DNA from: Nemertoderma westbladi
Taxonomy: Eukaryota > Animalia > Xenacoelomorpha
Length of the DNA stretch: 64,000 bases
Assembly: GCA_032718475.1 (NCBI GenBank)
Contig: JAUCBJ010008467.1
Location: forward strand, 1 to 64,000
Direction of reading: 5' to 3'
The position numbers and the translations under genes were made by a program. Below the pieces are notes generated by a model, which searched no databases, was not told where the DNA came from, and was given only the letters and a program-made list of their open reading frames with translations. Numbering within the stretch: position 1 is the stretch's first letter; each line of letters opens with the position of its first letter. Shown here piece after piece: positions 17,366 through 63,792 of this stretch.

Positions 17366-18715
17366 TACATTGTTAACTCTTTCGCTTACCTTAACCTATC
17401 TTTTAGTTTAATTTGCCTTTTGTTATTCTGTAAAGTTTAGTTAATTTGATAAGTCTTACGTTAAATATACCCCAAACTCTAACATGTAGTTTTAACATAT
17501 CTATCTTGAGACAGCCAAATGCTTCGGGGAATGGCTGCCTAAACCGTTTGGCTTCAGCAACGCAAGGGGAAGGGATGTCCACAACGCATTAAGGAGCCCA
17601 CATTATCTTAGCCCACCCATTTGAGAGTATGCCTTGCTGCCTGAAAGCGCCCACATCTGAGGAAGGTAAGACTTTGTTCGATGCCCTTGCCCTCCGTAAG
17701 ACCTTTAGATCAGGGTAAAGCATGACGTCATCCTGGGATGCCATAAAATTTAGGATTAAATATGGTGCGAGCAGCTGAACAGGTGCGAGCTGTTGCTGTT
17801 CATCAGTACGTGCAAGAACACTTAGGTGCGAATAGCACGCTCTATAATTTGGTGATTTGCAGTACTGACAGTACAGTACCAGCTCTGTATGCTTTATAGA
17901 TTGACTGACCAGTCTGATTCCAAAGTATTTGATCAGGCAAGAGGCAGCTTTCTGCTACCTGCACACGTTTGGCTAAGGGAGGTTTACTAAGATCCTACCC
18001 CGTCCTTGCCACGTACTGATAGGTATTTACTGCAGTCCACCACAGTAACAAAGTTCTAGAATCAAATTTATATACCAGATCTATAGGTATGGTAGTAAAT
18101 TAACACCTATTTCATTATCTTACAATCAGAATCTGGTATCAGTGCCGATCACGGGCGTAGTTACTAACACCGTAGTTGCCCGGTTGAGTTGTGAATGAAG
18201 GAGGAGAGCCCTTTTGACGTCAGTTTGTAAGTATTGCACCTGCAGCATGCGACTAGCTTATACAAGTAGCTAGGACCCGGTATTGTTATTTTGATAAAAT
18301 CACCAAAACCTAGTATAACGGCGATACACCAAAATTGTTTTATTTGTAACACACACACACACATACGTCTTGAGATCTAAGATACTGATTTACAATAGGC
18401 TATTATTATTTGAGGAGATATTTGGTATTTGTTTTACTCAGGCATAGAGGCACCCTTTTGACTGCTATTTCCCTGTTGGCAGTATTGTTTTAAGCTAGTG
18501 TCGTTGACCCGCTAGCTCGTATATACCCATATAAATCACACCACAACAAGTTTACGGTATTTTAGGTCCATTAGCGATAGTTAGACTTAGTATCTGTTTA
18601 TTTTGACATCCTGGACTGGGATTTCTTTTCAGATACTGTACGAGCCCGTATACACTGCTGGATTCTACAGTAAGGTACTTCGTTACTAGGATCCGGTATA
18701 CTACTGGACTTATCA
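17366..18715 (+). repeat. 5' LTR of element A, 5'-truncated by the Helentron array
   Basis: Aligns to 32287-33174 and to the inverted solo LTR 33868-35925; ends GGACTTATCA. Confidence 0.85.
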
Positions 18716-18959
18716 GTAGGATATATATATATTAATATATATGTTATTCGCTATTGTAGCACCAGTAGGAGATACTCTTATTAAATATATAGTAAGAGTA
18801 ATATATAGTAAGTATATAGTCCGATCTAAGAACCGGAAGTTGTACCGAGAGGGACAACGGAAGTTCTTACTACGGGAGGCACGTGAGCCTACCAAATTCC
18901 TCCTCTGGATAGATCGTTCGATAGTGTATGGAGCGATGTTGGCGACATTAGTAGGACAG

Positions 18960-19969
18960 CGTCTGTAATTACTCAGAAACAACAGGAGGTCACACGCCAA
19001 CAACAAGTCGACGAGGAAGAAGAATAACGCCAGATGGCACAGATTTCTATCGAGGGAGATAGACAACGTAGGGAAGACATAGCGAAAATGGCGCAACTCC
19101 AGGCCCAAGCCGAAGTTGGAGCATCAGAAATGTAGAGACTGGAAGAAGACATAGCGCAAGAAGTTGCTGCAACAGCAGCGGCGGAGGAGTTAGCCCGACG
19201 GACAACAGCGGAGAAGTTAGTGCGGCAAGCTACGGCAAATACAGCTGAGTTAGCACGGAAGAAAGCGGCATCTGTCGCTCGTGCCGAGTTGGAGGCGCGA
19301 CAAATAAGAGCTCGTTTAGGTATTCATGAAGCGGAGTTAGCGTCGCAACAGCTGTAGGCCAACCGACGCGAAAGAGAGATGCAGCTCCTGTTCGAACTAA
19401 ATCGTAGATCACGTGAGTTAGCGAACGCACAAGAGGACCTCGAGGTCGACGCGAGAGATAGATCTATAAGGTCTCGAACTGGACATGACTTGTCTGCATT
19501 GGATCGTATGGGGACTAGATATCATGGAATTCAGAAGCGAATTGAGGCAGAAAGTGTGGGAGCGATATATAGAGGAGAGGAGTTTGTTGAGGATTACTGT
19601 CAACGTTTTCCCCAAGTTATTCCTATGCTCAATCCCACGACTCCAGTAAAACCGATCATAGTTGTAAAGCCGAATGAGATATCGCCTGTGCAATCAATGC
19701 AAGAAAATAGGTTTGTTATATTGGAATCAATTCCGCAGCCAAGAGCGACTTCATCGCCGATTTTAGCAGGTAAGGTAAGTAGTCCACCTACTGTAAGCCA
19801 TAGTTTACTTGTAGAGAGGGACAAACCTGTATTCATGACAGTCAAACAGGTGAGTAAACCGTTACCAGTTAAACCTGTGATGTGCTGCATAACCCAGTCA
19901 TTTACAGACCAACTGCGACCAACAGCTATAACATGGTACGTGTTATACTACAACTGTATGCACAATTAA
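18960..19969 (+). pseudogene. Gag N-terminal-like coiled-coil remnant of element A
   Basis: Ala/Glu/Arg-rich helical reading frame with stops, leading into ORF 19379-19969; located downstream of the 5' LTR. No diagnostic domain recognised. Confidence 0.45.
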
Positions 19970-20258: not shown

Positions 20259-23200
20259 TCATGGTGGAGGAAACCCATAGTAGTCTGGTGGGCGCGTATG
20301 ACGCTGAGGATGCCGGGTGTGTGGAGGAACGTTGTCCACATCGTCGAACCCGAGGAACACCTCGTCTAGGGACGGAGAGGGTGATGGGGAGCGCGCTGGT
20401 GCCGGAGAGGGTGTAGTTGGAAGCACAGAAGGTACCGGAGGAGAGGCCTGGTAATGTCGCTCACCCAGCGGTTCGGTGTCGGCTGGTCGCGAGGAAGGTA
20501 GACCCGCCGACCCCTCGTCATCGTCGTTGGACGAGGGTTCGTTGACCGCAGCTACCAAGGTATCGCGGTAGGGTACGCGATAACATTCGGACCGCGGAAC
20601 CCGATAGGCCTGCGAACGCAGTTGGCGACCGACGAACTTCCGGACACTTACCCAGGATTGGTCCGTTGTCGCTACAATGTACCGGGGTCGGCCCTGTAGT
20701 TGCGGCGAATCGACGTGGAGGTAGACGATATCTCCTACTTCTAACGGAGTATCTCTAGCGGAGCTACTGGGATGCGGATTTTTGGACTGTGCACTATGGG
20801 GATGATTGGCCAAACGACGGCGATGTTGCTGGTCGATAAGCTCAGAATCGATGAGGGGGAGTTGAGCGCCAGTAAACTGATCACGTTGGAGCAGAATTTC
20901 TCGGGCGGATACGCCGCTCGACCGGATACGCGCATTTAACCGGGCGACGGCGAGGGCGAGAGACACAACGGAGTAGGGTACCCCGGAGGGATGGAGTTTA
21001 AGGAGCTCGTCTTCTAATTCGCGGACGGCGTGTTCCGCGACCAGATTTTTGTCTTTATTTTTGGCGCGACCCAACTCAATACGGATATGGTGGGTGGATA
21101 AAACCTTGTCGCCGACTAACGCACGGAATCCGGGTGCGGGATCGGTACGGATGACTGCGTGGGGGCCGCTAAGGGGGCACACACCGACGCACAACGTGAG
21201 GAGGCCATCCCGCAACGTTGTGTGTTGTTCAACTGAGAGGAACATGGCAGCAGAGTACGACGAGGCGGTTTCGCGGAGGATGAGTATGAACTGTCGATGG
21301 CGACGGATGACATCGGCAGCGAATGCGATTCCGATGGCGGCCGGAGGGTCACCGGACGACTGCTCGATGGATCGCCGTGGGGCGGAATGCAGCGCGGCGC
21401 ATTGGGCACACTGCGAGTGGATGGATGTGATGGCTTCTTCCATGTCGAGGGCGTAGAAGTACCGCAGAAATGTAACGCGCAGCTGGGTACGCGACGGGTG
21501 CTGCAACTCGAGGTGCAGTGATGTAAGGAGACCAGAGAGCGCATGGCGAGGGACAACGATCATTTCCCGTGGGGTCGAGAACGCGGTGTGTCGAGGAACA
21601 ACGAGGAGTCCGTCCATGGCGATGGACGCGCAGCCGATGTACTGCTTAACGTCGCGGATGGTCGTCTCCTTCTTGGAGGGATGCGTGCCCTGTGCGAGGT
21701 GCGCCTTGGTGCGACGGATAGATACGCATTCCGGCTGGGTGACGAGCCAGGTACTATGGGTGGCGTACAAGGGACGCGCTAGAGGGGGGGGGGGGTCTTT
21801 GGTGAGACCCGCCGCACGGATGATGGGTTCGTCGGCAAGCTGATTAACGAAGTCACAGACCTGGCACTGTGGATTAACACACTCGGGAATACTGCGACTT
21901 TGGAAGTCGGCTGGTAGGTTGCGCGAACCCTGGATATGGACCACGAGGAGGGAGAACTGGCTCACCGTGGCGAGGAAGGTAGTGAGTCTTGGGCTGTTGG
22001 AGTAAGCCCCACGAGTAAGTTTAGCGAATGCCTGGACGCAGGGTTTACTATCGGTGACAACGGACGTGCGGGTAGTAGCGTGAGTGATATAGGGGGCGAA
22101 GTGATGAACAGCTGCGGCGATAGCGAGTGCTTCCAATTCACAAGGAAGCCACGTACATTGATGGGTTCGCAACTTCGTGGAGTAGAACCCGGCGACGAGG
22201 AGTTTCGACTCGCGGCGGATATATAAGACAGCGCCGAGTCCATCGACGCTGGAGGCGGCATCGGTGATGATGAACAGCTCGTCGGAGGGCCATGGGAGAA
22301 CCACAGTATGGCATGTTTTCAGGGCGGCCTGAGCATGCCGGAATGCACAAGTCGAAGGATCCATCCACTGAACGATATCGGCGGAAGCGCCGACTGCGAG
22401 TTCGTCGAGGTCGGAGAGAAGTGCTGCGCAATGGGGGAGAACGCGCGCGAGGACTTTATACAATCCCAGGAAGGAACGGAGGGACCGGACAGTGTCAGGT
22501 TTATCGCAGGTTGCGAGGGCTGAGACGACGCGGTCAGGGAGCCAGCAGTCCATTGCCAGCCAAGAATGGTTGCGGAATGCGGGCAAATGACGGTCTTCTT
22601 GGGGGATAAACGTAAAGAAGAGCGTGCGAGGGCTGTGAGTAGCGCGTTAAAATTGGCAGCTAATTCGTCTATCGTGTTGCCGCCACAATACAAATCGTCT
22701 GCGAGTTTACTGACGGCGCCCTGCTTGATGAGTTCCCCAATGACACGGCACATCAGTTCTTCCAAGGCGGTCTCGGATCCGGGCATACCCATGGCGCAGC
22801 AGGTATAGACTCGCACGCCGCGGAACGGTGTAACAAAACCGCAGAACTTCATGGAGTTGCGACTAATGGGGATCTGGTAGAACGCACTTGTTAAATCAGT
22901 TTTGATGAGGAACTTATAGGAGCCGATTTCGCGCAGGGTAGACTCGACACTAGGGAGGAGTGATGGCTGGGGTTTAGCATACCGGGCGATCTCGTTAAAG
23001 GCTGTAACAAGACGAGTTCCTCCGTAAGGTTTGGCGACGAGGAAGGAGGGACTAAGGTACTCCACATGTACCCCAGCGTGTTGGGTGTAGCGAAGACACC
23101 GCGTTGTTCGAGTTCGTCGAACCGGTCCTGCAACTCGACGAGGCAGTTGCGGCCGTATTGGGGTACACGTTCTTTCTGTTGAGGGGGTAGAGTTGGTCCC

Positions 23201-25109
23201 ATTTTGACAACGGCTTCGTAGGGGCCCGCGGCGCCGTTGTATCCAGGGTACTCGGCTTCGAATACCGTGGAGTGCGCGGCGAGGACGTCGGAAAACTGGC
23301 AGCGTTCAGCGCTGGTGAGGATGTTGTCGGGGTCTAAGCGTACGCCGTCGACAGAACGGGGGTTGGGGCGATGGGTAGAGCGCGGTGCAGGCAGTGGGAC
23401 TGTGTCAACGGCAGTGGTCGGTATTGCCGCCGGTTGGATGGGTGTTGCCAAGCAAACGTGAGAGTTCCGTTTGATCCTGACGGGGATCTGTGTGACATTG
23501 CGGATGGCGAAGGAACCGTCGCACACGTTGGCAAGGAACGGTTGGAACCAGGGCTCATATGGAGACGTAGATGGATGGTGGGGTGCCAGTAAGAGGGGCA
23601 CGGTACTCGCTACCGGTAGAGTGAGATTCACGTCTGGCCAGACTACGACGGACCGGGTAGATGCACGTACCAGTGTGGACTCAGGTCTTCGCGGGCGCGT
23701 GGAGGTTGAGTGCTGGCCTCCGAAGGGTATTGTGGTGCCGTCCGGTAGGGTAATCGTCATATGGGTGGGACGTAGCGTTATATCATTGCGGTATAGGAAC
23801 GGCATTCCACAAATGATGGGACATCCGAGCTCCGGGATGACGAGACCGTTAAACTCGAAGGGGATCGAGCCACGGTGGACGACAAAACGCGTTTCGCCGG
23901 TAACCTTCATCTTAGACTGTCCATCGGCCTGTTCGGGAACCTGGCAACTACTCGGGGATATATGGACGCCCAGCTGGCGGTGAACGCCTCCCGGATGAGA
24001 TCGGATTCTGCGCCACTGTCGAGTAGCAATCGAAGTGGACGGGACTGATAATCGGCTTCCAAGACAGGGGAACGCATCACAGCGACTCGGCGGGCCGCTG
24101 GTGGTTGGTTGTAACTCATTGGGGAATCATCGGGGGGCTCAAACTCGTCATTGGAACTGGCGGAATCGGCGATATCGATGGCGTGAGTCCGGACGAGGAA
24201 CTGTTTATCCTGATCGGGGAGGAATGGGCAGGTACTGAGGAAGTGGTCGAAGTCCTTGCGTTGCGCCTGCTTGCACAGGGGGCAAATCCGGGCAGGTCGT
24301 GTGCGGTTCTGTAAACTACGGCGGTCGAGCTGGCGCATGCGGTTCGGGTGGCGCGGGGCAACCTCCGTCGTCTGGGAGCGGAACATGCGCACGTCGGCTG
24401 ACACGCGGAGCTCCTCCAAGAGGGACGGCATCGCCTGGCTGATCTCGGCCTTGACGGAAGCCAAGGTGCGGGAACGAAGTTCGCAGCCATATCGTTGCTT
24501 AACCAACGCCAGTAAGTCCTCGTGGATGAGACATAACCAAGTAAACACAAGGAAGTTCTCCACTGTGGGGGAGATCTCATCGGCGGCGGTGGGGAGCTCG
24601 CAGTGGTGGGTAATGCCCCTGAGGGGTGAGAGGAGGTTGTCATCAAAAAACGCTGCGAGATGTTGGAAAAGGTCTTCATGGCGTTCCTCGTGTTCGAGGT
24701 GGATGGTGGAGAAATCTAGGAAGTGGGAGCCTGTCCGTTGAAAACCGTAATGTAATCGGAGGGCCTGCCAGACGTATGAGAGAGATGTTGATTTTAGTAC
24801 GATGGTGTTATGCGCGATAACCTGCGCGTAGTTGGCGATTTGGCCCAGCATGACCTAAAGGGAGACGAGTTGTTGCTGCGCAGTACGTCGTTGGGCGTCC
24901 GGAACACCGGCGGCGTGGTCGACGAGACCCCGGGTCGGACTCGCAGGAGAAGCCTTCTCCCATACTGCGCCAGCGGCGGTAAACCGCGCGAACTCTGGGT
25001 TGAGGGACAGACTATAAATCAACGTCTGGCGCCAGGACTCGAATGACGTGATGGATTCCTGAGTAGTGAGTTTAACTAAACGTGGAGCCTTTAGGTGTTG
25101 ATTCGCCAT
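20259..25109 (-). pseudogene. Ty3/Gypsy gag-pol, disrupted by stops and frameshifts (gag, CCHC, protease, RT, RNase H, integrase)
   Basis: Gag 25109-23907 with CPLCK..DHFLSTC; protease LLDSGA; [29 protein letters not shown]; RNase H IITDAA, CELEALA, VTDSKP, PADFQSR; integrase HHCC, FAADV, IRTDPAPGF, VAEHAVRE. Markedly more GC-rich than its flanks. Confidence 0.93.
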
Positions 25110-25477: not shown

Positions 25478-27810
25478 ACGTTCATATCCACCAATATTGT
25501 CAGTCTAGTTCAGCGCGAATTGAAGGCTAACTTGAAGTCAAGTATTGGACCGATGCGACATTGGTACTTTGGTACATTAACAACGAAATGTTTCAGTTCA
25601 AGACTTTCGTGGCCAACAGGTGGGCTGAAATACAAGACCGGTCGCTCAAACAAGACTGACATCACTGCCCAGGGAAACTGAACCCCACTGACATCGCGTC
25701 ATGGGGAATGTCACCCATAGACTTTTGTAAACCGGGCAATAAGTCCTACGGGTTTAAAGGACCCGATTTCCTACAACGACCATCAGACGAATGGCCGCTG
25801 TTATTCGACGCGACATTGAATACCATACCGAAAGGTGCCGAGATTAAAATCGACACTGTTGTCAAGTCGAAGGCTAAAGTCAGCACCAGTGTCAAGAGGA
25901 AACAAGGACGAATAAAATCCAATGACCTGGACATTAGACCAGACATTACGCCAGACGTCTCACCAGACGTTCGACCAGACGTTCCAAAGAATCTTTCGCC
26001 AGATGTTCCGCGGGAGATTTCACCAGACATTTCGCCAGATTGTTCACCAGACGTTTCGCCAGATTATTCGCCAGACTGTCCACCAGATTATTTTCCGGAT
26101 TCTTTGCCATACTGCCTTTTGGAGCTCTCAACAGATTGTCTACTGGACGCCTCACCAGATTTTCCACCAGACGTTTCGATGGATTTATTATCAGACATTT
26201 TGATGGATTTTCCACCAGACCTTTGACCAGACATCTCACCAGACTGTCTACCAGACTTTCCATGGACGATCCACCGGAAGGATGCCCCAAAATTAACCCA
26301 TTGGAGTGGACTAGTACTAACCCATTAGGCATTACCAACTTACCGACTTTGACTTCCTTGAGTCACAATGACAACGGTGTGGCTACAGGTATCACACTCC
26401 GCTCAAGAAAAATACCAGACTTACAGCCTACGGGTAAATGTGTAACTAAGGTTTGAAGGCTTGCAAGCTCACAGGAACACACTGATACTGTTGAGTTGAA
26501 ACCATTACTCTCAGTCAACCCACTGAATGCTGACGGTAAAGGTAAGACCATGGAGATTAAGGTACTTAAGCACTCAGACAAACATATTACACAAAGGGAG
26601 ACACTCACCGGAAGGCCCACAGGCCTACCAAGTCCAAACAAGTATCCACACTATGACTACACCTTACCTGATGACGTCACCAACACTTATGTTGACAGGA
26701 TAGTTAACTTGACTAGATCATGGACAGACGCATGCCGCAAGTTAGCATGGCTCAAATGTTTGAGACAATATGCCAGAGGCAAATGCGACTTTCCACAAAG
26801 ACTAACCTTGGCTGAAATTGGTAGCTGCGAGATTGATATTATTAGACATTATCAATTGCAATATTTTGCACGAGAGTTCACAGCGATAAACAGATCAAGT
26901 CTTCACCAATCTTGAGTTGAAGTATAATAATATACAAGGGCTTACTTTGTCACAAGTCCAGACTCCAAAACATTGACTTCGCATTAGACTTTAGGTACCC
27001 TATCATCATACCGCAACACCATGAGTTACAGCGTGCTATGATACTGGACGCACACATACAACTCAAACACGTAGGTAGACACCACTGTTTATCTCACTTA
27101 CGCTCGAGGTTTGTACTGATTAGCCTGGTAAGGATGCAACTGTATTATTTGTAAGAAGGTGCACACGAGGATAGGACACCAAGAAATGAGTGAACTACCA
27201 CTAGCAAGGTTACAGGCCTTTAGACCCCCATTCACCGAAACGGGGATAGACTGTTTTGGACCCATAATTGCAAAACACGGATGGGTACAGGTTAAACATT
27301 GGGGACTGATTTTTACCTGCATGGCAAGTAGAGCGGTTCATATTGAATGCATAACAGATCTAACCACCAATGCCTTTATCCTAGCCTTACGGCGATTTAT
27401 CGCTAGACGTGGATTGGTAAAATCCATACATTGTGACCAAGGGACCAACTTTGTGGGTGCGCGGAACAAAATTTCCAGAGCCTTAAAGAAATTGGACCAA
27501 AATCAAATCTCCAACAAATTACGTCCTCACAAGATTGTCTGGAACACTTCCGACAGTCCGTGGAGAGGCAGAGTTTGGGAGAGGTTGATTGGATCAATTA
27601 AGATGGCAATGGCAAAAGAATACCGACGCAACGCATATTGACAGATGACCAACTGACGACGTTGTTAATAGAAATCGAGGCGGTTCTGAATACTCGGCCC
27701 ATCGCTTTGATCCCAGACGACAACCTATCTCAGTTTGCCTTGACACCAGCGCACCTGCTTATGCAGGCGCCGATGACATTGTTGCCCACTTCTGTACCTG
27801 TTGGCAGTGA
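25478..27810 (+). pseudogene. BEL/Pao pol remnant: RNase H C-terminal half, expanded linker, integrase
   Basis: YWTDATLVLWYI, KTFVANR, HCPGKLNPTDIASWG, GPDFL..WP, then GIDCFGP, WGLIFTCMASRAVHIE, CDQGTNFVGA, WERLIGSIK, IEAVLNTRP, LTPAHLL. Confidence 0.92.
25936..26265 (+). repeat. 12-bp minisatellite (consensus ~CCAGACGTTTCA) encoding S-P-D-x tetrapeptide repeats within BEL pol
   Basis: CCAGA recurs every 12 bp; translation PDITPDVSPDVRPDV...PDYSPDCPPDY. Confidence 0.85.
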
Positions 27811-31845: not shown

Positions 31846-33174
31846 TGTGGGATTATTTCACTGTTAAGTAAGATATCTACAGTACTACGTAAAAAACTTT
31901 CTAAATCCGACGTATTATGCTTTGATTTGTAGTTGTTGTAATTTGCCTATTACCTACAATAGTTATAATTTCACCTGGGTTTCCATTGGCGCAGTGGTCG
32001 AGTAGGTTAAGGCGCGGGTTACATTGTAAGTAGGTCAGGGGTTCGAATCTAGATCGGTAAATTCCTAGTAGTAGTCCTAGTCCTAGTATTTTGGGCTATT
32101 ATATTTTCGGTTTCATTAATGAATGGGGTGCGTACAACATGTGGAACGATGAGTTGGACCAATCGTAGGGCACTTGATAATTTATTGCTCCAATGTGCAT
32201 TCATAGAATGTTGTAGAACGTTCTGGTTGATTCCATGCTTAGGATTTGCTATATAAGGGGCTGTTTGCCCTTCGGTTCTCTCTTATTACATTGTTAACTC
32301 ATTCGCATACCTTAACCTCTTTTAGTTTAATTTGCCTTTTGTTATTCTGTAAAGTTTAGTTAATTTGATGAGTCTTACATTAAATATACTGCAAACTCTA
32401 ACATGTAGTTTTAACGTATCTATCTTGAGACAGTCAAACGCTTCGGGGAATGGCTGCCTAGACCGTTAGGCTTCAGCAACGCAAGGGGAAGGGATGTCCA
32501 CGGCGCATTAAGGAGCCCACATTATCTTCGTGCGACTAGCTTATTTGAGTAGCTAGCACCTGGTATTGTTATTTTGATAAAATCACCAAAACCTAGTTTA
32601 ACGGCGATACACTAAAATTGATTTATTCGTAACACACACACACACATACACGCGTCTTGAGATCTAAGCTACTGATTTACAATAGACTATTATTATTTGA
32701 GGAGATATTTGGTATTTGTTTTACTCAGGCATAGAGGTACCCTTTTGACTGCTATTTTCCTGCCGGCAGTATTGTTTTATGCTAGTGTCATTGACCCGCC
32801 AGCTTGTATATACCCATATAAATCACACCGCAGCAAGTTTACGGTATTTTAGGTCCATTAGCGATAGTTAGGATTCGCTACGCGGGGATTGTTTTACCGT
32901 GAGTTTGGTCTGTATCTGTAAACTGTACATCTGCCTCACCGGTTAGAGGCCGGGCATCCTGTTTGTCTAGTTACCCCGGGCATTTGATTCGCCCAAGTAT
33001 TAGAATAGACATCAGGCTCCATTCCTCGCCAGTAGTACTTAGTATCTGTTTATTTAGACACCCTGGACTGGGATTTCTTGTCAGATACTGAACGAGCCCG
33101 TATACACTGCTGGATTCTACAGTAAGGTACATCGTTACTAGGATCCGGTAAGCGGTATACTACTGCACTTATCA
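31846..33174 (+). repeat. 3' LTR of element A (internal ~640 bp deletion relative to the other copies)
   Basis: Starts TGTGGGATTATTTCA, ends CTTATCA; CCAAT near 32159 and TATATAA at 32250-32256. Confidence 0.85.
31980..32062 (+). other. tRNA-derived (Pol III A/B-box) segment inside the LTR U3 region
   Basis: A-box TGGCGCAGTGG (~31988) and B-box GGTTCGAATC (~32040); no intact cloverleaf or anticodon arm recognised. Confidence 0.5.
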
Positions 33175-42132: not shown

Positions 42133-42217
42133 GTTAAAAACTGCCGAGGAAGTTAAAAATCGACGAGTCGATATCGAAGATTAAAGAAAATAAACTGTGA
42201 CCACAGCCAGCGCCAAC

Positions 42218-45770: not shown

Positions 45771-46374
45771 CCCTTCCCACAAAAATAAAATAAATAAATA
45801 AAATAAATAAGTAGTAAAACATCATTACCAAGGTACGCTGTAGGTATGACTGGTCCTCTCTGTTGCAACAGCCAAGTGTGAGATCCAGCTTCACACTACA
45901 GCTGAGCAACAGGTATGAGGCTCTTGCCTCTGAGGCGGCAGATCACTGTGAGGGCTATACTGCCTTTACAGAAGCAGTTAAGTTAGCAGCTGCAGAAACA
46001 GTTCCTATATACCCTCGAAACAGGAAAAGGGCCCCCTGGACTGACAACAAAATTCAGAAGTGCCGAAATGACCTTCATAAGGCGCAGAAAGAGTCCCGAC
46101 GCAAACAGACTACAGCGGCAAGAATGCAGTTAAGGCTGCATCTAGGTCCCTGAACAGGCAGTACTCTGCTAATCTACAGGAGCTAATAAACCAACAGGTT
46201 GATGCCATCAATGATGCTGACGACAGCAGGCAATCATCCCAGGCATGGAAATCGATCAATCTGCTTACTGGGCGGAAAAGCCAACCAACCACCAAGGTTA
46301 AGGCTGAATCACCAGCCGATCGCCTCAATGGTTGGAAAGCCCACTTTGATAAGCTCCTCAATAATGACAGGGTA

Positions 46375-47985: not shown

Positions 47986-48149
47986 AAATGCAGCTGCAAT
48001 GCAGCATGCTGATCCTAGTTGTAGTAGTAGGTAGACATTATGTACATCTGATAGGTACAGATGTACCAATGTACATAATACATAGGTGTAGGTAGTTACA
48101 ATTACGTACGTTGGAAGGTACAAAATGTATCAACATACCCAATTTACAT

Positions 48150-48640: not shown

Positions 48641-49852
48641 TGTTCGCGCTTTTAAGACCTTTGGCAGTTTAACCCGCCAAATCTATATGTCTTCTAGGTT
48701 ATAAATCTACTCCAGCCTACTGGCCTATGTCAAGTATTGAACACCTATAATAATTCTAACATTAGCCAAAGCCAGTCTGTGCGCGACCATTCACCCGCTG
48801 GATATACCCGGGAGACTGGATTTGGATGCTTTAATTTGATTGCGGTGCAGGCCTACCGTACTATTCGATTGATCGTTAATATATAATCTCTGACAAATAT
48901 TATTCACCTTTTGGGAAATATTAGCAGTTCCTTTAGGACGTGGCGCTCTATCTATTTAAACAGAGCTATGACTTACACTATACACAACGGTATGTCTTAT
49001 AGATCACCAAAGTGCATTCTTTAGGAAATGCTTTGTTACTCGGTCAAGCACACACAGACTATTGCACACAACTGCACACTGAATTGCCGATATTCACTGA
49101 TTTTAATCATATATAAAGAGAACAGCAACCAACATTTGTAGGGCCTATTAAGTAGCATTGAACTCACTACAAACCACGATAATGTATGTCGCAAATTGTT
49201 ATATGTAACCGGTCTCTCTAACCTTAGTGTATCAAGAAGATTGGGGTTTCGGATCGTTATCAATATTCTTCCCAATAATAATATGTAAACGAATGATACA
49301 ATCAACAACACAGTAAATAGCAGTAAATAATGCAAGTGTACTTAACCAAGCTGACCAAGGTGCTGTACCAAAACCGAGACCGAGATAACAGTTTGATGAT
49401 CTTATAATTAAAGACGCTCTAATGTCAGAAAACATTCCCCGGCCGGTGTTCTTAGGCGTGGGGGAAACGTCAGTACTGAATCATGGGATTCTGCTGTACA
49501 GCTTTTTTTACACAAAGGGAAAATCTCTGATTGGTCGAACTGACGTGGACACAGCTGATAGATGTCGTCATTTGAGCTGAGCAGAACAAAGAACCAAGGC
49601 TCCGTGCAGAGGCTCCACGTGTACAGCTCAGCTATTAGCTGTCGTCATAGTAACTACACTGTTCAAGAGTATTTCGGCTTTTACGTCATAGAATTGCGGA
49701 TTATGTCCGCTAAAGTACACATACAGAAGAAATTACTTTTATGTCCTCTAAAACACCAGTACAGTAAGGACACGGCCTTTTTATGCCTGGTAAACCAACT
49801 ACAGAGTACTTTACGGGGAAAATAACCGGCTAATTATGCAAAAGCCTTTACA
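48641..49852 (-). repeat. 3' LTR of element B
   Basis: TGTTCGCGC...CCTTTACA; direct repeat of 58310-59521. Confidence 0.95.
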
Positions 49853-52800: not shown

Positions 52801-52854
52801 ATAAAATAAAAACAAATATAAAATGATATAGTCACACGCCCACTCCATATGTTA

Positions 52855-55800
52855 TTACGTTATGGAGTCCCTAGATATTTGTCGGATTAGGGAAGTGGTC
52901 GTAGGAAGAGTATCTTGCCTTCCATAGTTTCCGGACAGTTTTCGGTCTCTTTCCAGTAAACATAAACGACCAGCTGGGCGATTGAGTTGTTGTGTTACTT
53001 TCTCCGCTCCCTTGGCCTGTCTAATCTCCGCCGTGGTAATATGAGGAGGCCATTCTTCTTCTTCTTTACTTAAGAAGTCGGATCCACCTAACCAGCCTGG
53101 AGTATCTATCAGTTCTTGAGGAGTTGCTCCTCTGGAAGCAATGTCGGCTGGATTAATCGTCCCAAGGCAATGTCTCCATTGATCTACATTGGAGTTAATA
53201 TCGTCATTATCTGAGGAGTATGGTGTTCCCTCAGTTGGGTCGTCCACCTCACTGCTCTCCACTTCCCATTCCTTTACTTGGTATACCTGTTCTTGAGGTA
53301 ATCTCTCTTTGAGAGTTCTACGGGAAGGGCCAGTGAAGTACCAACCTACTCTAGTTCTTACTGCATAGGTTTGTAGTGGCTGTGGTTGAGCAGGCCGTTT
53401 CTCCAATGTCTCTAGCGCCTCATGCGCGTTTTGGCCGATGAGTATTTGCACTCCAGGATAATCTGTGTGGAATCGAGGTATCTTAAGCTGCTGGATGCTC
53501 TCGTCCTCGTCCCAGTTATAAGGTTCTACCTGGGTAGTAGCGAAGTTCTTTATAGCCACCATTTTTACTGACCTTATACTTTGTTCTCCTAATTTATCCT
53601 GGGGGGTGGACAACGCACCTACATAGTAATCTGCCGTTATGGTAGATTTCCAAACCTGCATAATTCCTGACATATCCAACTTAGTTCGGAATTTGGGTTG
53701 TCCAGCAAAGATGTCTTCGGCTAGTTCTTGATCGATGAATGTTCCTGTGCTGCCGGAGTCAAGGAGGGCGTTCACTATGTAACTTTTGGTGGGACCGTGA
53801 ACTCTTACCTGCACTACAGGAAATTCTCTGATTCCTACGTTGGAAGTTGGAGGTTTCCAAGATGGTTGTCTGTCAAAGGTAGTTGGGGGGAACTCATTGT
53901 CGGTGTCCTTTTCATACGTAAGTGCTCGATACACTGCGGTATTTATTAGGTAACAGGATTCGTTGGCGTCGGAGAATTCGTCCGTATAGAATCCTTCCAT
54001 CTCAGACTCTTGATCAGTGTCATTTACATCACTGAATTGGACATGTAGTTCGGGCTCACTTACCTGACTCGGGTTGTTTCGTTCGAATTCACTGCGTAAC
54101 AAGATGTGATGTTTCGCACCGCACTTTGCACACTTTACTTCGGAGTAACAGGTTCGCCGTTGGTGTCCTGGTCTGAGGCAATTATAGCATAACCGCTTAT
54201 CCCACATGACTTCACGTCTGTCTACCAGGGATTTCTTTAGGAATTCAGCACACACACTCAAACGGTGGGGCCCGTCACACAGCGCACATTTTGGTTTGAT
54301 GTTACTCACTTTACCTTGGGTAACGTTATGCACTCTCGTTCTTTCTTCGGGCTTTCTTCCGTGAATTCTCTTAGGAGACGTAGGAGGAGTTGTTGTTACC
54401 TGTTCTCTCCGGTCACTGGTTCGAGACTTATATTTACTTACGTCTTTATAGGTCTTGTTGTCATAGTAGGATTTTGCTGTGTCTTTCCCGCTGTCCTCTT
54501 CCTGAGAGACTTGGCTTTCGCCGTCGTCAGTATAACACTCTGGTGTTACCCTTCTCCTAGAAACGGGTTTCTCACTTACCTTATTTTCCGATGTTTTCTC
54601 TCTGGACTGCTTTATGAGTTGTAATTTTACTTCACTATCTAAGAAGGACATGAGATCAGCCATGGTAGGGTCTCGTTGTTGTTGTTCCATCATATATAAC
54701 ACTTTCTTGTCCCAGCGTGTACCTACTCCACCCTTTGGTAAAGTAGATGCTAAGGCTCCTACAACCATAGAGTTCTCGTATTCATGAGACTTACCTAACC
54801 AATCTAGCTGTCTACAGATCTCCTGAATTTCATCGGAAAATTCTATAATCCCGCTGCTAAGAAACTTTCGGGGCGCCATTAATTTCGCATATAAATACCT
54901 AGCTATGTTAGTCCTATTACCATACCTGATGTTTAATGTATCCCAAACTTGTCTTAATCCATCTGGATGTCCAATAAACTTTAACACCATTAACTTGGGA
55001 GGTCCTTCCAAGCACTTGATGAGGAATCTAAGTTTCTCTCCGTTAGATAGTACAGAGTTCTGTATGCTATCTTTGTAATATTCATTGAAAGATAACCATT
55101 TCATCTCATCTCCATTGAATTTGACGATTTCTCCCACTTTGACCGCTTGGTGGGCTTCTGTTCTAGCCATCTGACGCGTAAAACTTTCTTGAGCCATCGT
55201 ATTATTGAATATAGAATTATCGGTATATAAATTTCTCGGATTATGATCAGGTCTATATGGAATATTATTATCAACAGGTTTATAATTACCCTGAATAGGG
55301 TTTACTATAGGAGTTTCTACTTCACTAGCAGTATAGATGCGTGTAGGCTCCACACCTTGCGCATGAAATACTTCAGACCTAACGGGTTGACACATTGTTA
55401 CACGGGGTGGTGTTATACCCCTTTGTATGTTCACTAATTTATCGCGTTCTAACGCGATACTTTGCTGCACCTTTTGCAACTCTAACCTACTTTGCCTTAC
55501 TGTTCCCTTGATCTGCTGAACAGTCTCTTCCACTTCCCGGACCTGCTGAGAGGAGCACAAACAGTGTTCCCTCAGCTGCTCGAGCAGGAGACCCATCTCC
55601 CGTCGTCCCTCAGCTACCCACTCAACCGCCGAAGCGGGAGTCGCCAACGTAGTAGCGGGCGAGCGAGAGACGACGGGCGATAAATTCTTGATATCTCGCT
55701 CGGTGTCCAGGACGGGTTCGGACTCGGGAACAGTCCTACTGGGCACAGGTAGTTTAGTACTGTTCAAAGGGAATTTATAGGCAGGTTCTGGGAGTACAGG

Positions 55801-56052
55801 TGTCTCTATCTTTCTTTCCGCTTCTACTGTTGCCATTGCCTCTGCCACCTTTCTTTCCGCTTCTGCAGTTGCCATTGTCTCTGCCGCCTTTCTTTCCGCT
55901 TCTGCTGTTGCCATTGCCTCTGCCGCCTTTCTTTCCGCTTCTGCTGTTGCCATTGCCTCTGCCATCTTCCTTTCAAGACCCTGTCCAAGTCTAAGACTCA
56001 TTCTAACACCTTCCAAAAGACTATCTGACAGTGCCCGTTTTGTGTCAGACAT
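52855..56052 (-). CDS. BEL/Pao Gag-protease (1065 aa) fused in frame to an RNase H C-terminal remnant
   Basis: FNGDEMKWLSF...EKLRFLIKCLEG (DUF1759-like), three knuckles CALCDGPH/CYNCLRPGH/CAKCGAKHH, protease ALLDSGS, then QWRHCLGTINPADIASRG. Confidence 0.92.
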   Translation of the reverse strand: MSDTKRALSDSLLEGVRMSLRLGQGLERKMAEAMATAEAERKAAEAMATAEAERKAAETMATAEAERKVAEAMATVEAERKIETPVLPEPAYKFPLNSTKLPVPSRTVPESEPVLDTERDIKNLSPVVSRSPATTLATPASAVEWVAEGRREMGLLLEQLREHCLCSSQQVREVEETVQQIKGTVRQSRLELQKVQQSIALERDKLVNIQRGITPPRVTMCQPVRSEVFHAQGVEPTRIYTASEVETPIVNPIQGNYKPVDNNIPYRPDHNPRNLYTDNSIFNNTMAQESFTRQMARTEAHQAVKVGEIVKFNGDEMKWLSFNEYYKDSIQNSVLSNGEKLRFLIKCLEGPPKLMVLKFIGHPDGLRQVWDTLNIRYGNRTNIARYLYAKLMAPRKFLSSGIIEFSDEIQEICRQLDWLGKSHEYENSMVVGALASTLPKGGVGTRWDKKVLYMMEQQQRDPTMADLMSFLDSEVKLQLIKQSREKTSENKVSEKPVSRRRVTPECYTDDGESQVSQEEDSGKDTAKSYYDNKTYKDVSKYKSRTSDRREQVTTTPPTSPKRIHGRKPEERTRVHNVTQGKVSNIKPKCALCDGPHRLSVCAEFLKKSLVDRREVMWDKRLCYNCLRPGHQRRTCYSEVKCAKCGAKHHILLRSEFERNNPSQVSEPELHVQFSDVNDTDQESEMEGFYTDEFSDANESCYLINTAVYRALTYEKDTDNEFPPTTFDRQPSWKPPTSNVGIREFPVVQVRVHGPTKSYIVNALLDSGSTGTFIDQELAEDIFAGQPKFRTKLDMSGIMQVWKSTITADYYVGALSTPQDKLGEQSIRSVKMVAIKNFATTQVEPYNWDEDESIQQLKIPRFHTDYPGVQILIGQNAHEALETLEKRPAQPQPLQTYAVRTRVGWYFTGPSRRTLKERLPQEQVYQVKEWEVESSEVDDPTEGTPYSSDNDDINSNVDQWRHCLGTINPADIASRGATPQELIDTPGWLGGSDFLSKEEEEWPPHITTAEIRQAKGAEKVTQQLNRPAGRLCLLERDRKLSGNYGRQDTLPTTTSLIRQISRDSIT
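55808..55965 (-). repeat. 39-bp x4 coding repeat (AEAMATAEAERKA) in the Gag N-terminus
   Basis: Visible in both the ORF translation and the DNA. Confidence 0.9.
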
Positions 56053-57429
56053 GTTTGTTTACACAGTTGAATGCCTACGGCTATAAATACAGCTAAAGTA
56101 AGTCTAGTAATTCAGTATCACTGTTAGCCTAATAATTAATTACCGATACTGCTGCTCAGTGTAGCGTGATATATATATAATATATTAGAATACCGGTATG
56201 CTTATAGTATATATATAAGTATTATTACAGACTAGATTTGTCACAGAGTACCGGTATATAATTTTAGCACAACTATATATAAATATATAATAGGCCTATC
56301 GTGAATACCGGTATACAGCTGACACTTATAGTATATATAAGTATAATTATTACAGACTAGAATTAATTACAGAATACCGGTATGATTTCAGCCTAAATTT
56401 ATAGAATAAATATAATAAGCCTATTGTAAATACCGGTATGTCAATTATTTTAAAAATAATTGAATTTCTGAATGTTAGGGGTTACTTGGTTACTTTACTT
56501 ACTCTATTACCATTATTTGAGCAGCAGTCCAACTGATATTAAGACCTAAGTGTTGTATAACAGGCCTACTATTTTATTAATAGATTTAGTGGGTTTATAT
56601 GTACCCGTATGAGGGATTTTGTTACAATATTGAAATAGATGTTATTATTTCTGGGAATTAATCACTACACAAAAGCTGTGCGCTCTCAGTGAAGTGCTAC
56701 TTATTGGACACTAAAACAAATAATTCTACTTCCTAAGTTACTTATCTACGAATTACTTACGATACGGGTGAGATTAAATCTCTAATTAAACACAAAAAAT
56801 TACAAAAAACACAAATACGAATTTTTAGGGTAATTTTACAAGGAACTACAAACCAGTCTAACAGAGTGTTAGATTTTCTGGTTATTACATCGGACAGGAT
56901 ACTACGGTATTTGAAAATAATAAGTAGTAGTAAATACACTGTGTTGTCCAGATAGGAAATACCACCGTCTGACGACCTATAGCCGTATCGCTATAGGTAC
57001 TACGTTATGTATCATGGAGTGTCCCTACCTAGAAGTTAATTACCGCGGTCTACCAGAACCAACGTGCCTATTAACCACTTTACAACACAATACACTGCCT
57101 ACACACTAATTACTTTCGGAAAGCACTGTACACCAAACCCTAAATTAGGTACAAGTACTTATTAAAAACAGATAACTAGCAGCTAAATATACTTGAACAG
57201 TTAAAAGAACCATGGCATCTGCTGGAGTGACCGGAGCACAAAGTCACCAGTCTTTACCTACGCCAAGCAGCCCGTGTAGTACCGGGGTTAATTTAACTAT
57301 AACGGTATGTGTAACAAGCACAATTACTGTAGGAATAAACTTAGGGATATGAATGTTGCGAATAATCGCATAAACTCTGAATAATAAATATTACGCTACC
57401 CGTACAGAATACTCAAACAAAATACAAAC

Positions 57430-57950: not shown

Positions 57951-58309
57951 GTCTGTACAGACTGAACAGGCTTACACGCCTTCTGCTCAATACTGGCCTA
58001 CAAATAAATAAAACTGACAGAAATAAGTAAAATCTCAATAAAAAACCAGGGCGGGCCCTCCCTGATTAATTATTAAGGCCTACCGGTATATAACTATCAA
58101 AATCGAATAATACTGCTGTACCTGTACTGTTGTAAGTACCGGTCCGGATGATCAGGCAGTCAGGCCTACTGGTTACCGGTCGACCGGTACTTTAGTCTTG
58201 ATCGCTTACGCCGCAATCAAGATCCTACAAACTGTTATTGTTCTTACCAGAACAATATTAAACTGTATTTATTGCCTACACTGCAATCAAGAATTTTACA
58301 AACTGTTAT

Positions 58310-59521
58310 TGTTCGCGCTTTTAAGACCTTTGGCAGTTTAACCCGCCAAATCTATATGTCTTCTAGGTTATAAATCTACTCCAGCCTACTGGCCTATGAC
58401 AAGTATTGAACACCTATAATAATTCTAACATTAGCCAAAGCCAGTCTGTGCGCGACCATTCACCCGCTGGATATACCCGGGAGACTGGATTTGGATGCTT
58501 TAATTTGATTGCGGTGCAGGCCTACCGTACTATTCGATTGATCGTTAATATATAATCTCTGACAAATATTATTCACCTTTTGGGAAATATTAGCAGTTCC
58601 TTTAGGACGTGGCGCTCTATCTATTTAAACAGAGCTATGACTTACACTATACACAACGGTATGTCTTATAGATCACCAAAGTGCATTCTTTAGGAAATGC
58701 TTTGTTACTCGGTCAAGCACACACAGACTATTGCACACAACTGCACACTGAATTGCCGATATTCACTGATTTTAATCATATATAAAGAGAACAGCAACCA
58801 ACATTTGTAGGGCCTATTAAGTAGCATTGAACTCACTACAAACCACGATAATGTATGTCGCAAATTGTTATATGTAACCGGTCTCTCTAACCTTAGTGTA
58901 TCAAGAAGATTGGGGTTTCGGATCGTTATCAATATTCTTCCCAATAATAATATGTAAACGAATGATACAATCAACAACACAGTAAATAGCAGTAAATAAT
59001 GCAAGTGTACTTAACCAAGCTGACCAAGGTGCTGTACCAAAACCGAGACCGAGATAACAGTTTGATGATCTTATAATTAAAGACGCTCTAATGTCAGAAA
59101 ACATTCCCCGGCCGGTGTTCTTAGGCGTGGGGGAAACGTCAGTGCTGAATCATGGGATTCTGCTGTACAGCTTTTTTTACACAAAGGGAAAATCTCTGAT
59201 TGGTCGAACTGACGTGGACACAGCTGATAGATGTCGTCATTTGAGCTGAGCAGAACAAAGAACCAAGGCTCCGTGCAGAGGCTCCACGTGTACAGCTCAG
59301 CTATTAGCTGTCGTCATAGTAACTACACTGTTCAAGAGTATTTCGGCTTTTACGTCATAGAATTGCGGATTATGTCCGCTAAAGTATACATACAGAAGAA
59401 ATTACTTTTATGTCCTCTAAAACACCAGTACAGTAAGGACACGGCCTTTTTATGCCTGGTAAACCAACTACAGAGTACTTTACGGGGAAAATAACCGGCT
59501 AATTACGCAAAATCCTTTACA
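58310..59521 (-). repeat. 5' LTR of element B
   Basis: Direct repeat of 48641-49852; upstream of gag on the minus strand. Confidence 0.95.
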
Positions 59522-59978: not shown

Positions 59979-62462
59979 ATGGCGGAGAAACTAGTGTAGA
60001 AGAGGAAATTAGAGAAGAGTAGAAAGGAGTTACTAGTGGATTTCACGCAGAGGCATTGGGAGAACAAGATGAAGGGATACTACAAACCACTCCCGAAAGG
60101 TCATAAAGCGCATGCGCTACAGGATCAGTTTAGGGAGATGCACGAGCGACGGCTGGTCGGGACCTACGTGACGCCGTCATTGGACAACGCGATCGACGAG
60201 CATCTTCGCTACGTTGTAAAGGGGGACGAAGCTAGGTTCTGGATACCAAAGTACCCAAGGGAACCACCGAGGAAGGGGTGGAGGAGATTTGTAGATTCCG
60301 TGGAGAGGGGTGGATACATGGTTCTAGACGACGAAGGGACTATGGAGGACGACGAGGACTCGAGAAGGGGGTTGGGAGGATCGGCTAGAACCATATTGCT
60401 GCACTTAGCAGCGCCGAATGGAGATATCTTTCTATTTGACATAGGGACCTACGGAAAGAGGAGTGGGCCGAAATTAAATCGGTTGCCGAATGCGGTGCAG
60501 GAGCTAGTAAGACTGAAGACTATGCACAAGGTGCGATCAGCGATACGCAGCAATGCGGACAGAATTATTGGACCGGGCACCCCGAATCTTCTGGACATGC
60601 AGGTAGTCTACATGGCTATGATGAAACTATAGGGATTGGGATTGGTGGTTAACACAGGACATTACGGAGCCGTGGCGATGGGTCAACTGATGGGACTCGT
60701 CTGCCACAAGCCAATGGACTGGAACAAGTTCCGGGAGGAATACGGAGCGGAACTTGCAAACTCACTCAAGTGGGGAGTGAGACCGGGGAAGGAGGAGCTA
60801 TATCACTTCTGGAAGGGAGCCATAAAGATATATCAGAAGAGATATATCCTACAATAGAACTGGATAATGATAGGTTTACTAAACATATTCATTACGGTGA
60901 CTATTGGGAGGGAGCCGACGGCGTTTCTACTATTGGGATCACCTCTGAACCACAGGAGAGCCTTTAACATGGCCCTAGAAGGTCTTGTAGACCACCCGGG
61001 GCTGAATGGCGAGTCGGTATATTACAATAACCGACACCTGGTGGACAGAGAGGTAGATACAACATACAAGCAATGGAAGAAACAGGAGGCAGATAGGGTT
61101 GAGGAGAGGGGACTAGAGGAGGTCGCCAGGAGAGAGAGAAGGGAGGCAGCGGGCAGAGAGGCAGATATAAGGGGAGAGGAGTATGAGTTCGAAGCCCAGG
61201 ATTTGGATCAGCTGAGGTGGGGATCGGAGACCTCAGGCAAGTTTCGGCTGGGGGACGAACTGGGTTGGATGAAGAGACACCGATACAGTCTACACGGGGC
61301 TGTAAGGAATGCCCATGCCTGCAGGGTCTGAGGGCGACTTAGGAAGGAGGAGACCGAGGGAGGTAAAAGGGTGGAAGAAGGTTAACTGGGAGTTAACGAG
61401 GACGAGTTCGGGGCGATGCCACCGATAGCGAGGATTGGCCACTCGGACACAGACTAGGTTGGTGGAAGGGTGGTGACAGCCAGCAGGGCGACAGCCTTCT
61501 GGGATGCATCCGGTAAGCGTACCTGGGTGCAAGGGGAGCCGGCAACGGACTTAGCGGCGAGCACGATCCGACTGGGCGAGCAACTGGGGACGGCACCACA
61601 GGTAGTGTTTGGAGAAACGATGCCGAGGTTGGAGGAGGACAACGATATGGGTAGGGAAGACAACATCGAGATGTTTACCTACCAGCGGCTCCACAGACCC
61701 AGGATGCCACGTGGAGCCAAGGTCGACTTGGGGCGAGAGACAATGGTACACGGTTGCGATTACTGTGGGAGATTAACCCATCAGCAAAAGAACTGTCTGT
61801 ACCGTTACCAGAAGGGGACGGCGTGTCTTTACTGCCGCGAGTCTACACACAGGATGGGTGCGTGCCCGAGGTTGCACGACAGATGTTCGAAGTGCAAGTT
61901 TAAAGGGCACTTTGAGCGCCAGTGCGACTGGATGGATGATCAGGAGAAATTCCACATTTTCGAAGAGTGGGCCGACGTCGGAGTCATGACACGACAAAGG
62001 ATGAAGGCCCAGGAGTTCTGGTGGGGCTTCTTCAACATTATTATAGAAGCCCACCAGCAGATCACCAAGAGGAGACTACCATTTACGTATCAGGAGGTAG
62101 CGACAGCGGCATCATACGGAGGGTTCATCAACACCCAAAGATATCTGGACAGATGGTCACCAGGAAATAGGATAGAATTCAGGGACTTTCTGGCGGAACA
62201 CATGCCGCGTGCGATGAAGATGATCTTGTGGGACACTGCCAGGGGGAAACACGAGGGACACTCAGTGGGACCACCTGCGAAGCAATACCATGAGTTAATA
62301 ACACCCGCGCCCAAAGAACCGACAACGGGGCTTGGTAAAATGGTATCAGTGAGGATGAGTAGCCTCAAGGGTAAACAGGAAGGGAGGAAGCGACCCAGGC
62401 AGGACGACGATAGGGGCAAGGAACTTAGATGGTTCCCGGAGGGTGTGGGAGGAGCGATGTAG
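59979..62462 (+). pseudogene. Accessory ORF B: DEDD-like 3'-5' exonuclease plus triple CCHC zinc-knuckle protein (single frame, about six in-frame stops)
   Basis: ORFs 60036, 60636, 60867 and 61470 share one frame with ATG 59979; GYMVLDDEG (60327-60335), LLHLAAPNGDIFLFDI, LPNAVQELV..MHKVRSAI, LLDMQ; CDYCGRLTHQQKNC, CLYCRESTHRMGAC, CSKCKFKGHFERQC. Confidence 0.7.
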
Positions 62463-63168
62463 AACTCTAGGACAAGCGATGTCAATGTGCCTGGAAGGCA
62501 CCATATGGACAGACCAGTACAAATAACTCCTAAGTGCAATTAACTAAGTGTAATTAGTATGTACGTAGGTAATTAATCAATATATATATATATACAATAC
62601 ATATATAAGCATAATATACGTACTATAGTCAGATATAACCTTTTCCAATTAGCTACTGGGACTGGGGACTAATTGACTGAAACAGGAGGACGAGACATTA
62701 GACGGATCACACTTCTTGAGTGCGAGGGCATAAACGAGAATGTGAGGCCTGACAGAAGTGCGTGGGGATAAAACGGGTTGAGTATGGGAAGACTATGGGG
62801 AGGAAGTGCTAGGGTAAGAGGAAGCAGAAGGGTGCGAGATTCAAGGGTGGGGAGCGAGCATGGAGGGGGGCGAGTCCTAAGAGACTAATAAGAGAGGAAA
62901 GGACAACGAAGTCCGAGAGATAAAATTGTGTGAGGAATGAGGGCGATCGTCTAAAACAGAGACGCCAGATACCTTGGTACAGCTTAGCTCGCAGATGTAC
63001 CAAGGATGGGTAGTGAAAACAGACCCATGGGGGGCAGCCAGGAAAGCTGACCCCGAGAAGAAAATTCCACCCCACATCCAATATTAGATTGGATTCCAGC
63101 GGAATTGAAAGGCACTTAAGGTTGATGCTATCTTCTCACCGGGAAGATATCATGGGGGGGGGGGGGGG

Positions 63169-63792
63169 TGTAAGCGGATTCAATTCCCTGCACTACCCAG
63201 CGGAAAATGGGCGAAGTGGCATTTTACCAATTATAGTTGGGAAGGTGACATTACCAATAATAATGTCACCTAATAACCAACTTAGGCGATACACGTCGCC
63301 AGCCACAAAGAAAGTTAAGAGGTCATAAACCATCTCAAAGGGACAAAGGGGCTAGCAGGGCTAGCACATGGGGATAGTGGCAGCAGGGAGTGGCAAGATG
63401 GAGATTAATCGGGTTAGCCAATGATGGGAAGGGAAAACAGGTGATTGGAACGCATCTATTGGCCAGGCCACTCAATACAGTAGCAGTGATTAATATGTGT
63501 TAATAATATAATCGTTGTACTTGTGGATTATGATTCAGTTGGTATCTGTAGAGTTGTGAGACTGGAACGATTTTTAACCATCATCGTCATTACCATGCTA
63601 TTATATTCTGACTGTGCTATTATTATGTTCTGTGATTATAACAACTGACACTAAAAACTCTGTTATTCCAACGGCCTTCGGCCTCATTATCCAGACCACA
63701 GCCTTTCAGCAGCCTACGGACGCGGCGACGCAAATAATACCAAAACAACACACCAGTCGGGGTTTAGCAACCAACTCCTAAGTCCCGTCACA
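63169..63792 (+). repeat. 3' LTR of element C
   Basis: Preceded by a G15 tract; direct repeat of 41520-42132. Confidence 0.92.

Follow-up and report, generated by a model that had tools for sequence, protein, structure and literature searches.

Candidate self-priming sites complementary to their own LTRs in BEL/Pao and unclassified retrotransposons of Nemertoderma westbladi

Introduction

In the long terminal repeat (LTR) retrotransposon Tf1, the first 11 nt of the transcript pair with the primer-binding site (PBS), RNase H cutting after them (PMC7175516); the same self-priming has been proposed for Tj1 of S. japonicus (PMC4600332). Tf1 and Tf2 of S. pombe, Tj1, and the Ty3/gypsy elements of the Tf1/sushi group and Tcn1 are alike in lacking a tRNA site and in having about 11 nt by the 5' LTR that pair with the same LTR (PMC7175516, PMC4600332, PMC6317226). 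Here, we analyze three LTR elements (A, B, and C) in a 64,000-nt stretch of DNA from Nemertoderma westbladi (assembly GCA_032718475.1, contig JAUCBJ010008467.1, positions 1 to 64,000; “the window” hereafter), in which the bases that follow the 5' LTR are complementary to a site within the element's own LTR. An earlier annotation made from the sequence alone (the first-pass annotation) had proposed tRNA-independent priming for all three, noting that Tf1/sushi chromoviruses prime themselves with the first 11 nt of their transcript, which for Tf1 agrees with PMC7175516.

The Tf1-type complementarity of about 11 nt is matched by 11 nt in B and 9 nt in C (11 with a G-U pair); the 7 nt in A lie within chance. 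Unlike in Tf1, the coding remnants of A and B are of the BEL/Pao type. In Tf1, the opening 11 nt of the RNA form the primer; here, judged by sequence context, the site probably lies within the transcript in A and C and may be at its start in B, and relatives of these elements assemble the site across a splice junction. For the plant Ty1/copia elements TAR, Houba, and Osr-1, self-priming outside the chromoviruses has likewise been predicted from sequence; these belong to another superfamily and kingdom, and the available part of PMC6317226 does not mention an internal or spliced site.

Canonical Belpaoviridae (Tas, BEL, Pao, Sinbad, Suzu) share with A and B the TG...CA LTRs, the 5-bp target-site duplication (TSD), the purine tract, the DUF1759 gag, the BEL-type RNase H tail, and the integrase. 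They have an 18-nt tRNA-complementary PBS (PMC8742986), and a TGG site is present in 12/12 of our controls; it is absent in the window elements. How BEL/Pao elements replicate is said to be poorly understood, with priming by a tRNA assumed (PMC8742986). We found no report of self-priming in BEL/Pao elements in the literature searched, whose scope did not extend to Repbase, GyDB, and subscription journals, which may note the trait; the available portions of PMC3118150, PMC6238403, and PMC554778 do not mention PBS or primer terms.

We consider it fairly probable, from the analysis below, that the LTR site serves as the primer of reverse transcription in place of a tRNA, in a Tf1-like manner. The trait itself is genuine in B and likely in C but weak in A; it is backed by related loci and by clean controls. 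The proposal of tRNA-independent self-priming is supported for B, moderately for C, and weakly for A.

Results

Pairing between the post-LTR motif and the element's own LTR

Self-BLAST of the window returned three LTR pairs (A, B, and C) and one solo LTR, in a nest of transposons. Chance pairing was estimated with dinucleotide shuffles of the element's own LTR, with pairing counted from offset 0. The features on which the comparison rests are as follows.

17365..18715 (+): element A 5' LTR, partial, with terminal CA; 94.2% identity to the 3' LTR over aligned columns
17992..17998 (+): LTR site of A; pairs over 7 nt with the motif after the LTR, at the position homologous to the solo LTR site
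18716..18724 (+): A motif GTAGGATAT directly after the LTR, a candidate PBS; an (AT)n run follows
31846..33174 (+): element A 3' LTR (TGT...CA), preceded by a purine tract; TATA at 32250; site-bearing segment missing
33868..35925 (-): solo LTR, a relative of A at about 76-85%; 5-bp TSD ACTTT
34872..34880 (-): site in the solo LTR; pairs with A's motif over 9 nt, 17/2000 shuffles
41520..42132 (+): element C 5' LTR, 613 bp; TSD TCACA/TTACA (one mismatch); 95.1% identity to the 3' LTR
41908..41918 (+): C LTR site; 9 Watson-Crick pairs, 11 including one G-U
42133..42141 (+): C post-LTR motif GTTAAAAAC, candidate PBS; 5/2000 shuffles
42152..42162 (+): second copy of C's motif; complementary at 11/11 positions to the site in the 3' LTR, 0/2000 shuffles
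63169..63792 (+): element C 3' LTR, preceded by a poly-G tract; site at 63568-63578
48641..49852 (-): element B 3' LTR; 99.6% identity to the 5' LTR; 5-bp TSD (GCACG on +)
58228..58238 (-): B second motif copy (+71); its extended pairing to the site is stronger (-19.2 vs -14.3 kcal/mol)
58272..58289 (-): B degenerate tRNA-PBS-like word at +20 (TGA, not TGG); 10/12 to one control PBS, 18/5000 shuffles
58299..58309 (-): B post-LTR motif ATAACAGTTTG, candidate PBS; 0/2000 shuffles
58310..59521 (-): element B 5' LTR, 1212 bp (self-BLAST, sequence)
59054..59064 (-): B LTR site, candidate self-primer; begins on an initiator-like motif

All eight motifs named in the first-pass annotation were located where it had placed them, with the reverse complementarity it had reported. 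In B, 11 nt pair with the element's own LTR from the first base after the CA (none of 2000 shuffles; 1/200 in a repeat run), and the annotated 11/11 match between 58299-58309 and 59054-59064 has the right coordinates. The differences listed (40 of 985) do not include B's site or PBS. Because its LTRs are 99.6% identical and its TSD is perfect, B was probably mobilized recently with its present leader. The match annotated in C, 42133-42141 against 41910-41918 and extendable by a G-U pair, also holds: the motif pairs over 9 nt with the 5' LTR (5/2000 shuffles) and over 8 nt with the 3' LTR (32/2000). The annotated pairing of GTAGGAT (18716-18722) with ATCCTAC (17992-17998) in A is present but lies within chance, since 7 nt were reached in 164/2000 shuffles (27/500 in a separate run). 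By this test, self-complementarity exceeds that of shuffled sequence in B and C but not in A.

Against the solo LTR, A's motif pairs over 9 nt. The 11/11 match claimed for this pair does not survive, as it includes the LTR's terminal CA and extends 9 nt beyond the LTR, and the two extra pairs are absent from A's LTR and from a contig of run X1. That run consists of contigs, two of them on A's LTR and none on A's leader; one contig preserves the A/solo group's 9-nt site but differs in its 3' flank. The 7-nt core of A is found also in the solo LTR and one X1 contig, the 3' flank being variable. With offsets 0-3 allowed, the match of A to the solo LTR was equaled in 33/500 shuffles and that of C in 8/500. 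The helix of each of the three elements stops at the LTR boundary. An expansion of A's (AT)n run by slippage, from a 14-nt match to the solo site, was considered and set aside as post hoc.

These figures bear on a reading in which AT-rich sequence in old copies accounts by coincidence for A's match, and perhaps for C's, and B alone is of the self-priming kind. The shuffle count for A is in its favor, and C's motif finds 9 nt in the unrelated 2-kb solo LTR as well, so a 9-nt match can arise by chance; moreover, the LTR pairs of A and C are 94-95% identical, and these copies are therefore old. On the other side, A's match and the 9-nt match of the solo LTR lie at homologous positions, C's two motif copies match both LTR variants, and the motifs of A and C begin with GTA and GTT, where those of five of seven related loci (below) begin with GT. 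We regard chance and decay as an improbable explanation.

tRNA-site controls lack the pairing

As the first-pass annotation had noted, no TGG-type PBS follows the three 5' LTRs: TGG is absent from the first 20 nt in A, B, and C, and first appears at offset 190 in A and 60 in B, with none within 200 nt in C. When the post-LTR leaders were compared with 14 control PBSs, the best likeness within 200 nt was 11/18, and no 18-nt tRNA-complementary PBS was found.

A broad BEL/Pao alignment scan gave 80 loci, with upstream DNA examined in 46; 12 LTR pairs were inspected and 10, from about seven families, were tested. Two were left out, L042 because of a tandem repeat and L051 because its LTR end was not delimited; a TGG site is present in each. 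All 10 tested loci carry TGG 1-9 nt after the LTR and show only 3-5 nt of self-pairing. Adding two loci from the set described below (L094 and L095) gives 12/12 controls with TGG 0-9 nt after the LTR and the same 3-5 nt. In 22 one-sided contigs scanned at all CA ends, no self-pairing occurred at a known LTR end; the best of them, L001, has 10 nt (3/300) away from its TGG-marked end.

A separate observation concerns L007, where no TGG site was seen and the 8 nt following a CA are matched by a stretch of LTR with a donor-like site at its end; its LTR is incomplete, and its integrase groups with tRNA-primed loci.

The controls also allow us to weigh priming by a tRNA, a tRNA half, or another small host RNA, with B's +20 word as a working or vestigial tRNA site. 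This word is identical to the PBS of L069 at 10 of 12 positions, a frequency of about 1% over the three elements. The TGA in both leader copies of B, however, is a mismatch against CCA, the likeness stops after 12 nt, and control spacers are 0-9 nt rather than 20. A and C reach just 7/12 and 8/12, and the splice-junction matches of the relatives would be left unexplained. We give a host-RNA primer little credence.

Related BEL/Pao loci pair across an LTR splice junction

An alignment of proteins close to A's integrase led to 16 loci (L081-L096), which are animal BEL/Pao retrotransposons in 16 contigs of prokaryote genome records and probably represent host contamination. Nine have a testable LTR end. 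Two of these (L094 and L095) have TGG and no self-pairing, and seven have no adjacent TGG. All seven TGG-less loci show 11-14 nt of self-complementarity, with differing letters, and in six of them it exists only across a GT-AG junction in the LTR. Pairing at offset 0 across the junction amounts to 11 nt in L087, 11 in L089, 14 in L092, 11 in L086, and 13 in L091 (0/200 shuffles each), and these five junctions have donor- and acceptor-like context; L087 and L089 are near relatives sharing one motif. In L084, 11 nt pair across the junction at +5 from an LTR end placed by eye (1/200), and in L082, 11 contiguous nt pair at +4 (0/200). The introns in the LTR measure 318-625 nt (L087:1339-2105, L089:1-627, L092:7217-7935, L091:5460-6291, L086:3238-4185, and L084). 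Among the remaining loci, L088 has an LTR end without TGG and too little LTR to test, and four further loci lack the 5' part.

Because these related loci share the trait while the tRNA-site controls do not, the self-priming reading gains considerably. The window elements themselves hold the site contiguously: the best spliced match is 6 nt in B, 4 in C, and 9 in A (6/100, with an exon-1 part of 2 nt), against contiguous matches of 11, 9, and 7 nt. A splice-built primer site in A, B, or C was therefore rejected; their contiguous sites need no splicing.

Some further details of these LTRs were noted. Splice donor- and acceptor-like words at 17666, 18023, and 18632 in A are kept in the 76%-identical solo LTR and suggest LTR introns that do not form the site. 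L082:6090-6425 is a 320-nt LTR whose post-LTR 15 nt seem to pair in two pieces (5 + 11, with a one-nt overlap), the two paired LTR segments lying about 70 nt apart without GT-AG ends. L092:7217-7921 is young (99% LTR identity, 5-bp TSD), with LTRs that read TA...AA instead of TG...CA.

Classification and kinship of the elements

The coding remnants used for classification are listed here.

25534..27790 (+): A, frameshifted remnants of a BEL/Pao integrase and RNase H tail, RT (reverse transcriptase) absent; tblastn, hidden Markov model (HMM) E 9e-70
52858..56058 (-): B BEL/Pao gag-protease open reading frame (ORF) fused to an RNase H tail; DUF1759 E 7.6e-14; RT and integrase deleted
60000..62459 (+): C broken ORF, family unassigned, CCHC knuckles; zf-CCHC_4 E 0.039, no homologues

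The first-pass annotation spoke of three different LTR elements and set the trait against BEL/Pao. On their sequence, A and B are defective BEL/Pao elements: both carry BEL-type gag/pol domains by profiles and tblastn, with RT absent in both and integrase also absent in B, and both fit BEL/Pao profiles rather than the Ty3/gypsy chromovirus pol of the Tf1/sushi group. Among the matches listed, nearly all of at least 120 homologues of A's pol remnants carry PF05380/PF18701/PF17921/PF00665, and the named proteins nearest A come from fish, cnidarians, molluscs, and other aquatic animals. The TG...CA LTRs, 5-bp TSD, and polypurine tract of BEL/Pao are present, with TSDs in B, C, and the solo LTR. 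C, in which profiles detect no gag or pol, is treated as an unclassified LTR element; with A by itself within chance, both the independence and the classification of the three cases had been overstated. No relatives were found among viral contigs.

In the kinship trees, the seven self-complementary loci form one clade without TGG-labelled rows (87/96; 27 rows, 165 columns). A's integrase, together with L074, is sister to this clade in FastTree (87). In the gag-protease tree, from which L071 and L093 were left out and in which the L087 row was mis-extracted, B is sister to it as well (Shimodaira-Hasegawa support 85). Kinship to the self-complementary clade is thus suggested for B, while A's placement differs between trees.

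Proposed mechanism of self-priming

In the mechanism we propose, the transcript's LTR site would pair with the PBS of the same RNA or, in trans, with that of a co-packaged one. The RT of a helper element, needed because A, B, and C all lack RT, would supply RNase H, and the cut would fall 3' of the paired stretch, so that the freed 3'-OH could be extended into U5. Because the first post-CA base is paired with the base at the site's 3' end, one cut 3' of the site would yield a primer whatever lies upstream. A primer from an internal site would carry a longer 5' tail than that of Tf1. What stands above the cut would be recovered from the 3' copy of the LTR as long as poly(A) addition occurs below the cut. 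The first-pass annotation had offered either internal cleavage or fold-back of the 3' R copy; the two options are not equal, since an internal site needs only a single 3'-side cut, which makes fold-back unnecessary. In the relatives, the primer site would be built by splicing out the LTR intron, while the window elements hold it contiguously.

Motif scans bear on where the site lies in the transcript. It had been placed tens to hundreds of nucleotides below the likely TATA boxes. In A, as in the solo LTR, the site lies about 660-715 nt below a TATA word. The placement does not hold for B, where a TATA-like word starts 11 nt above the site and the site begins on an initiator-like YYANWYY. If that word were a TATA box, B's site would be outside the 5' transcript. 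C has an initiator-like word about 35 nt above its site. A primer segment at the 5' end of the transcript would possibly fit B, and would not fit A or C. Poly(A)-like hexamers occur 22-75 nt below the acceptor in five spliced loci. In B they also follow the site; for A, C, and the solo LTR, the scan showed none there.

A broader scenario is possible, although we consider it less likely than not. A BEL/Pao branch may have independently swapped the tRNA for an internal-LTR-site primer, in a spliced form (six loci) and a contiguous form (B, L082, and probably C and A), the latter perhaps arising when reverse transcription loses the intron. In B and C, the second copy in the leader would then be a stronger docking site, and B's +20 word a relic tRNA site.

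If self-priming holds, it would be a further independent origin of the process, in a third LTR superfamily, and the primer need not be the RNA 5' end; in the relatives, reverse transcription would be tied to host splicing. Annotations of “no PBS found” would be accounted for as well, and a simple sequence test for them would be at hand.

Second motif copies, folding, and observations that count against self-priming

Beyond what the first-pass annotation had noted, the leaders of B and C hold second motif copies, at +71 and +19, respectively, which pair better than the LTR-adjacent copies; none of the seven related loci has one. Their better pairing, which priming alone does not call for, speaks for a helix that is real and selected but structural, of a U5-leader type acting in dimerization, packaging, or translation control, with another host RNA priming nearby. 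A 9-bp hairpin overlapping B's second copy, partly in the predicted fold, points the same way. Against a purely structural role, pairing begins at the first post-CA base, where the 3' end of a primer must sit, in the three window elements and five of seven relatives, and it is seen only where TGG is absent (0/12 controls). We consider the structural explanation unlikely.

Several observations nonetheless weigh against the self-priming that we favor. In global folding of the unspliced RNAs, the site-PBS helix reaches p <=0.07 in A, B, and C (0.01-0.93 in the spliced relatives). The window duplexes are weak (-7.8 to -11.2 kcal/mol), and the site-PBS distance is 214-744 nt in the window elements vs 74-153 nt in the spliced relatives. 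The pairing is observed in sequence, and the transcript start, cut, and primer are candidates. For Belpaoviridae, ICTV, the international virus taxonomy committee, states tRNA priming (PMC8742986), and B's +20 word resembles a control tRNA site. The pairing in A is not significant, and C has neither a BEL-type gag/pol domain (no HMM match below E 0.4) nor homologues. The careful tree places the integrase of A, with weak support, outside the self-complementary clade, and B's branch is long in the gag-protease tree. The offsets in L082 and L084 were picked after looking, and no convincing self-match was found in the circular clade loci L083 and L093 or in the incomplete loci L072 and L079.

Removal of a candidate intron in B (59037-58414) lifts the helix to p 0.48-0.98. 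This intron was not used as support because it is post hoc, has a weak donor, yields 0 when A is treated in the same way, and would not be inherited.

Window layout and nested elements

The remaining features of the window are the following.

17343..17364 (+): 3' end of the last unit of a Helitron-like tandem array; hairpin and CTAG, at the A|T step of A's 5' LTR
20262..24854 (-): gypsy-type pol fragment nested in A; Pfam RVT_1, RT_RNaseH
45846..48023 (+): long interspersed nuclear element (LINE)-type RT element nested in C; Pfam RVT_1 and DUF6451, loose ends at both borders

A's 5' LTR is interrupted at 17364/17365 by the tandem array, which we take to be Helitron-like from its hallmarks, and its left end lies outside the window; this interruption, like the absence of the site segment from A's 3' LTR, is an addition to the first-pass annotation. 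The array occupies 1-17364 head to tail in units of roughly 1.2-3 kb, 10 of which share the terminal hairpin and CTAG, and the equivalent point of A's 3' LTR has an uninterrupted A|T. An LTR search gave no LTR pair for the gypsy-type fragment, which is therefore unusable as an internal control. Element B (-) spans 48641-59521 and lies inside element C (+) at 41520-63792, which also holds the LINE.

Rfam gave no match on 17000-64000, and ARAGORN found no tRNA in the window. A broken extra ORF precedes the 3' LTR in A (28298-30700, +), C (60000-62459, +), and B (49900-52200, -), with no clear Pfam family; those of A and C share CCHC knuckles, and their mutual match is weak (E 0.006, small database). 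A by-eye impression that C's ORF is an exonuclease was unsupported by Pfam, HMMER, or the predicted fold (predicted local distance difference test score, 40). Finally, 36405-40231 holds fragments with a weak GIY-YIG match (E 0.003), possibly of a Penelope-like element.

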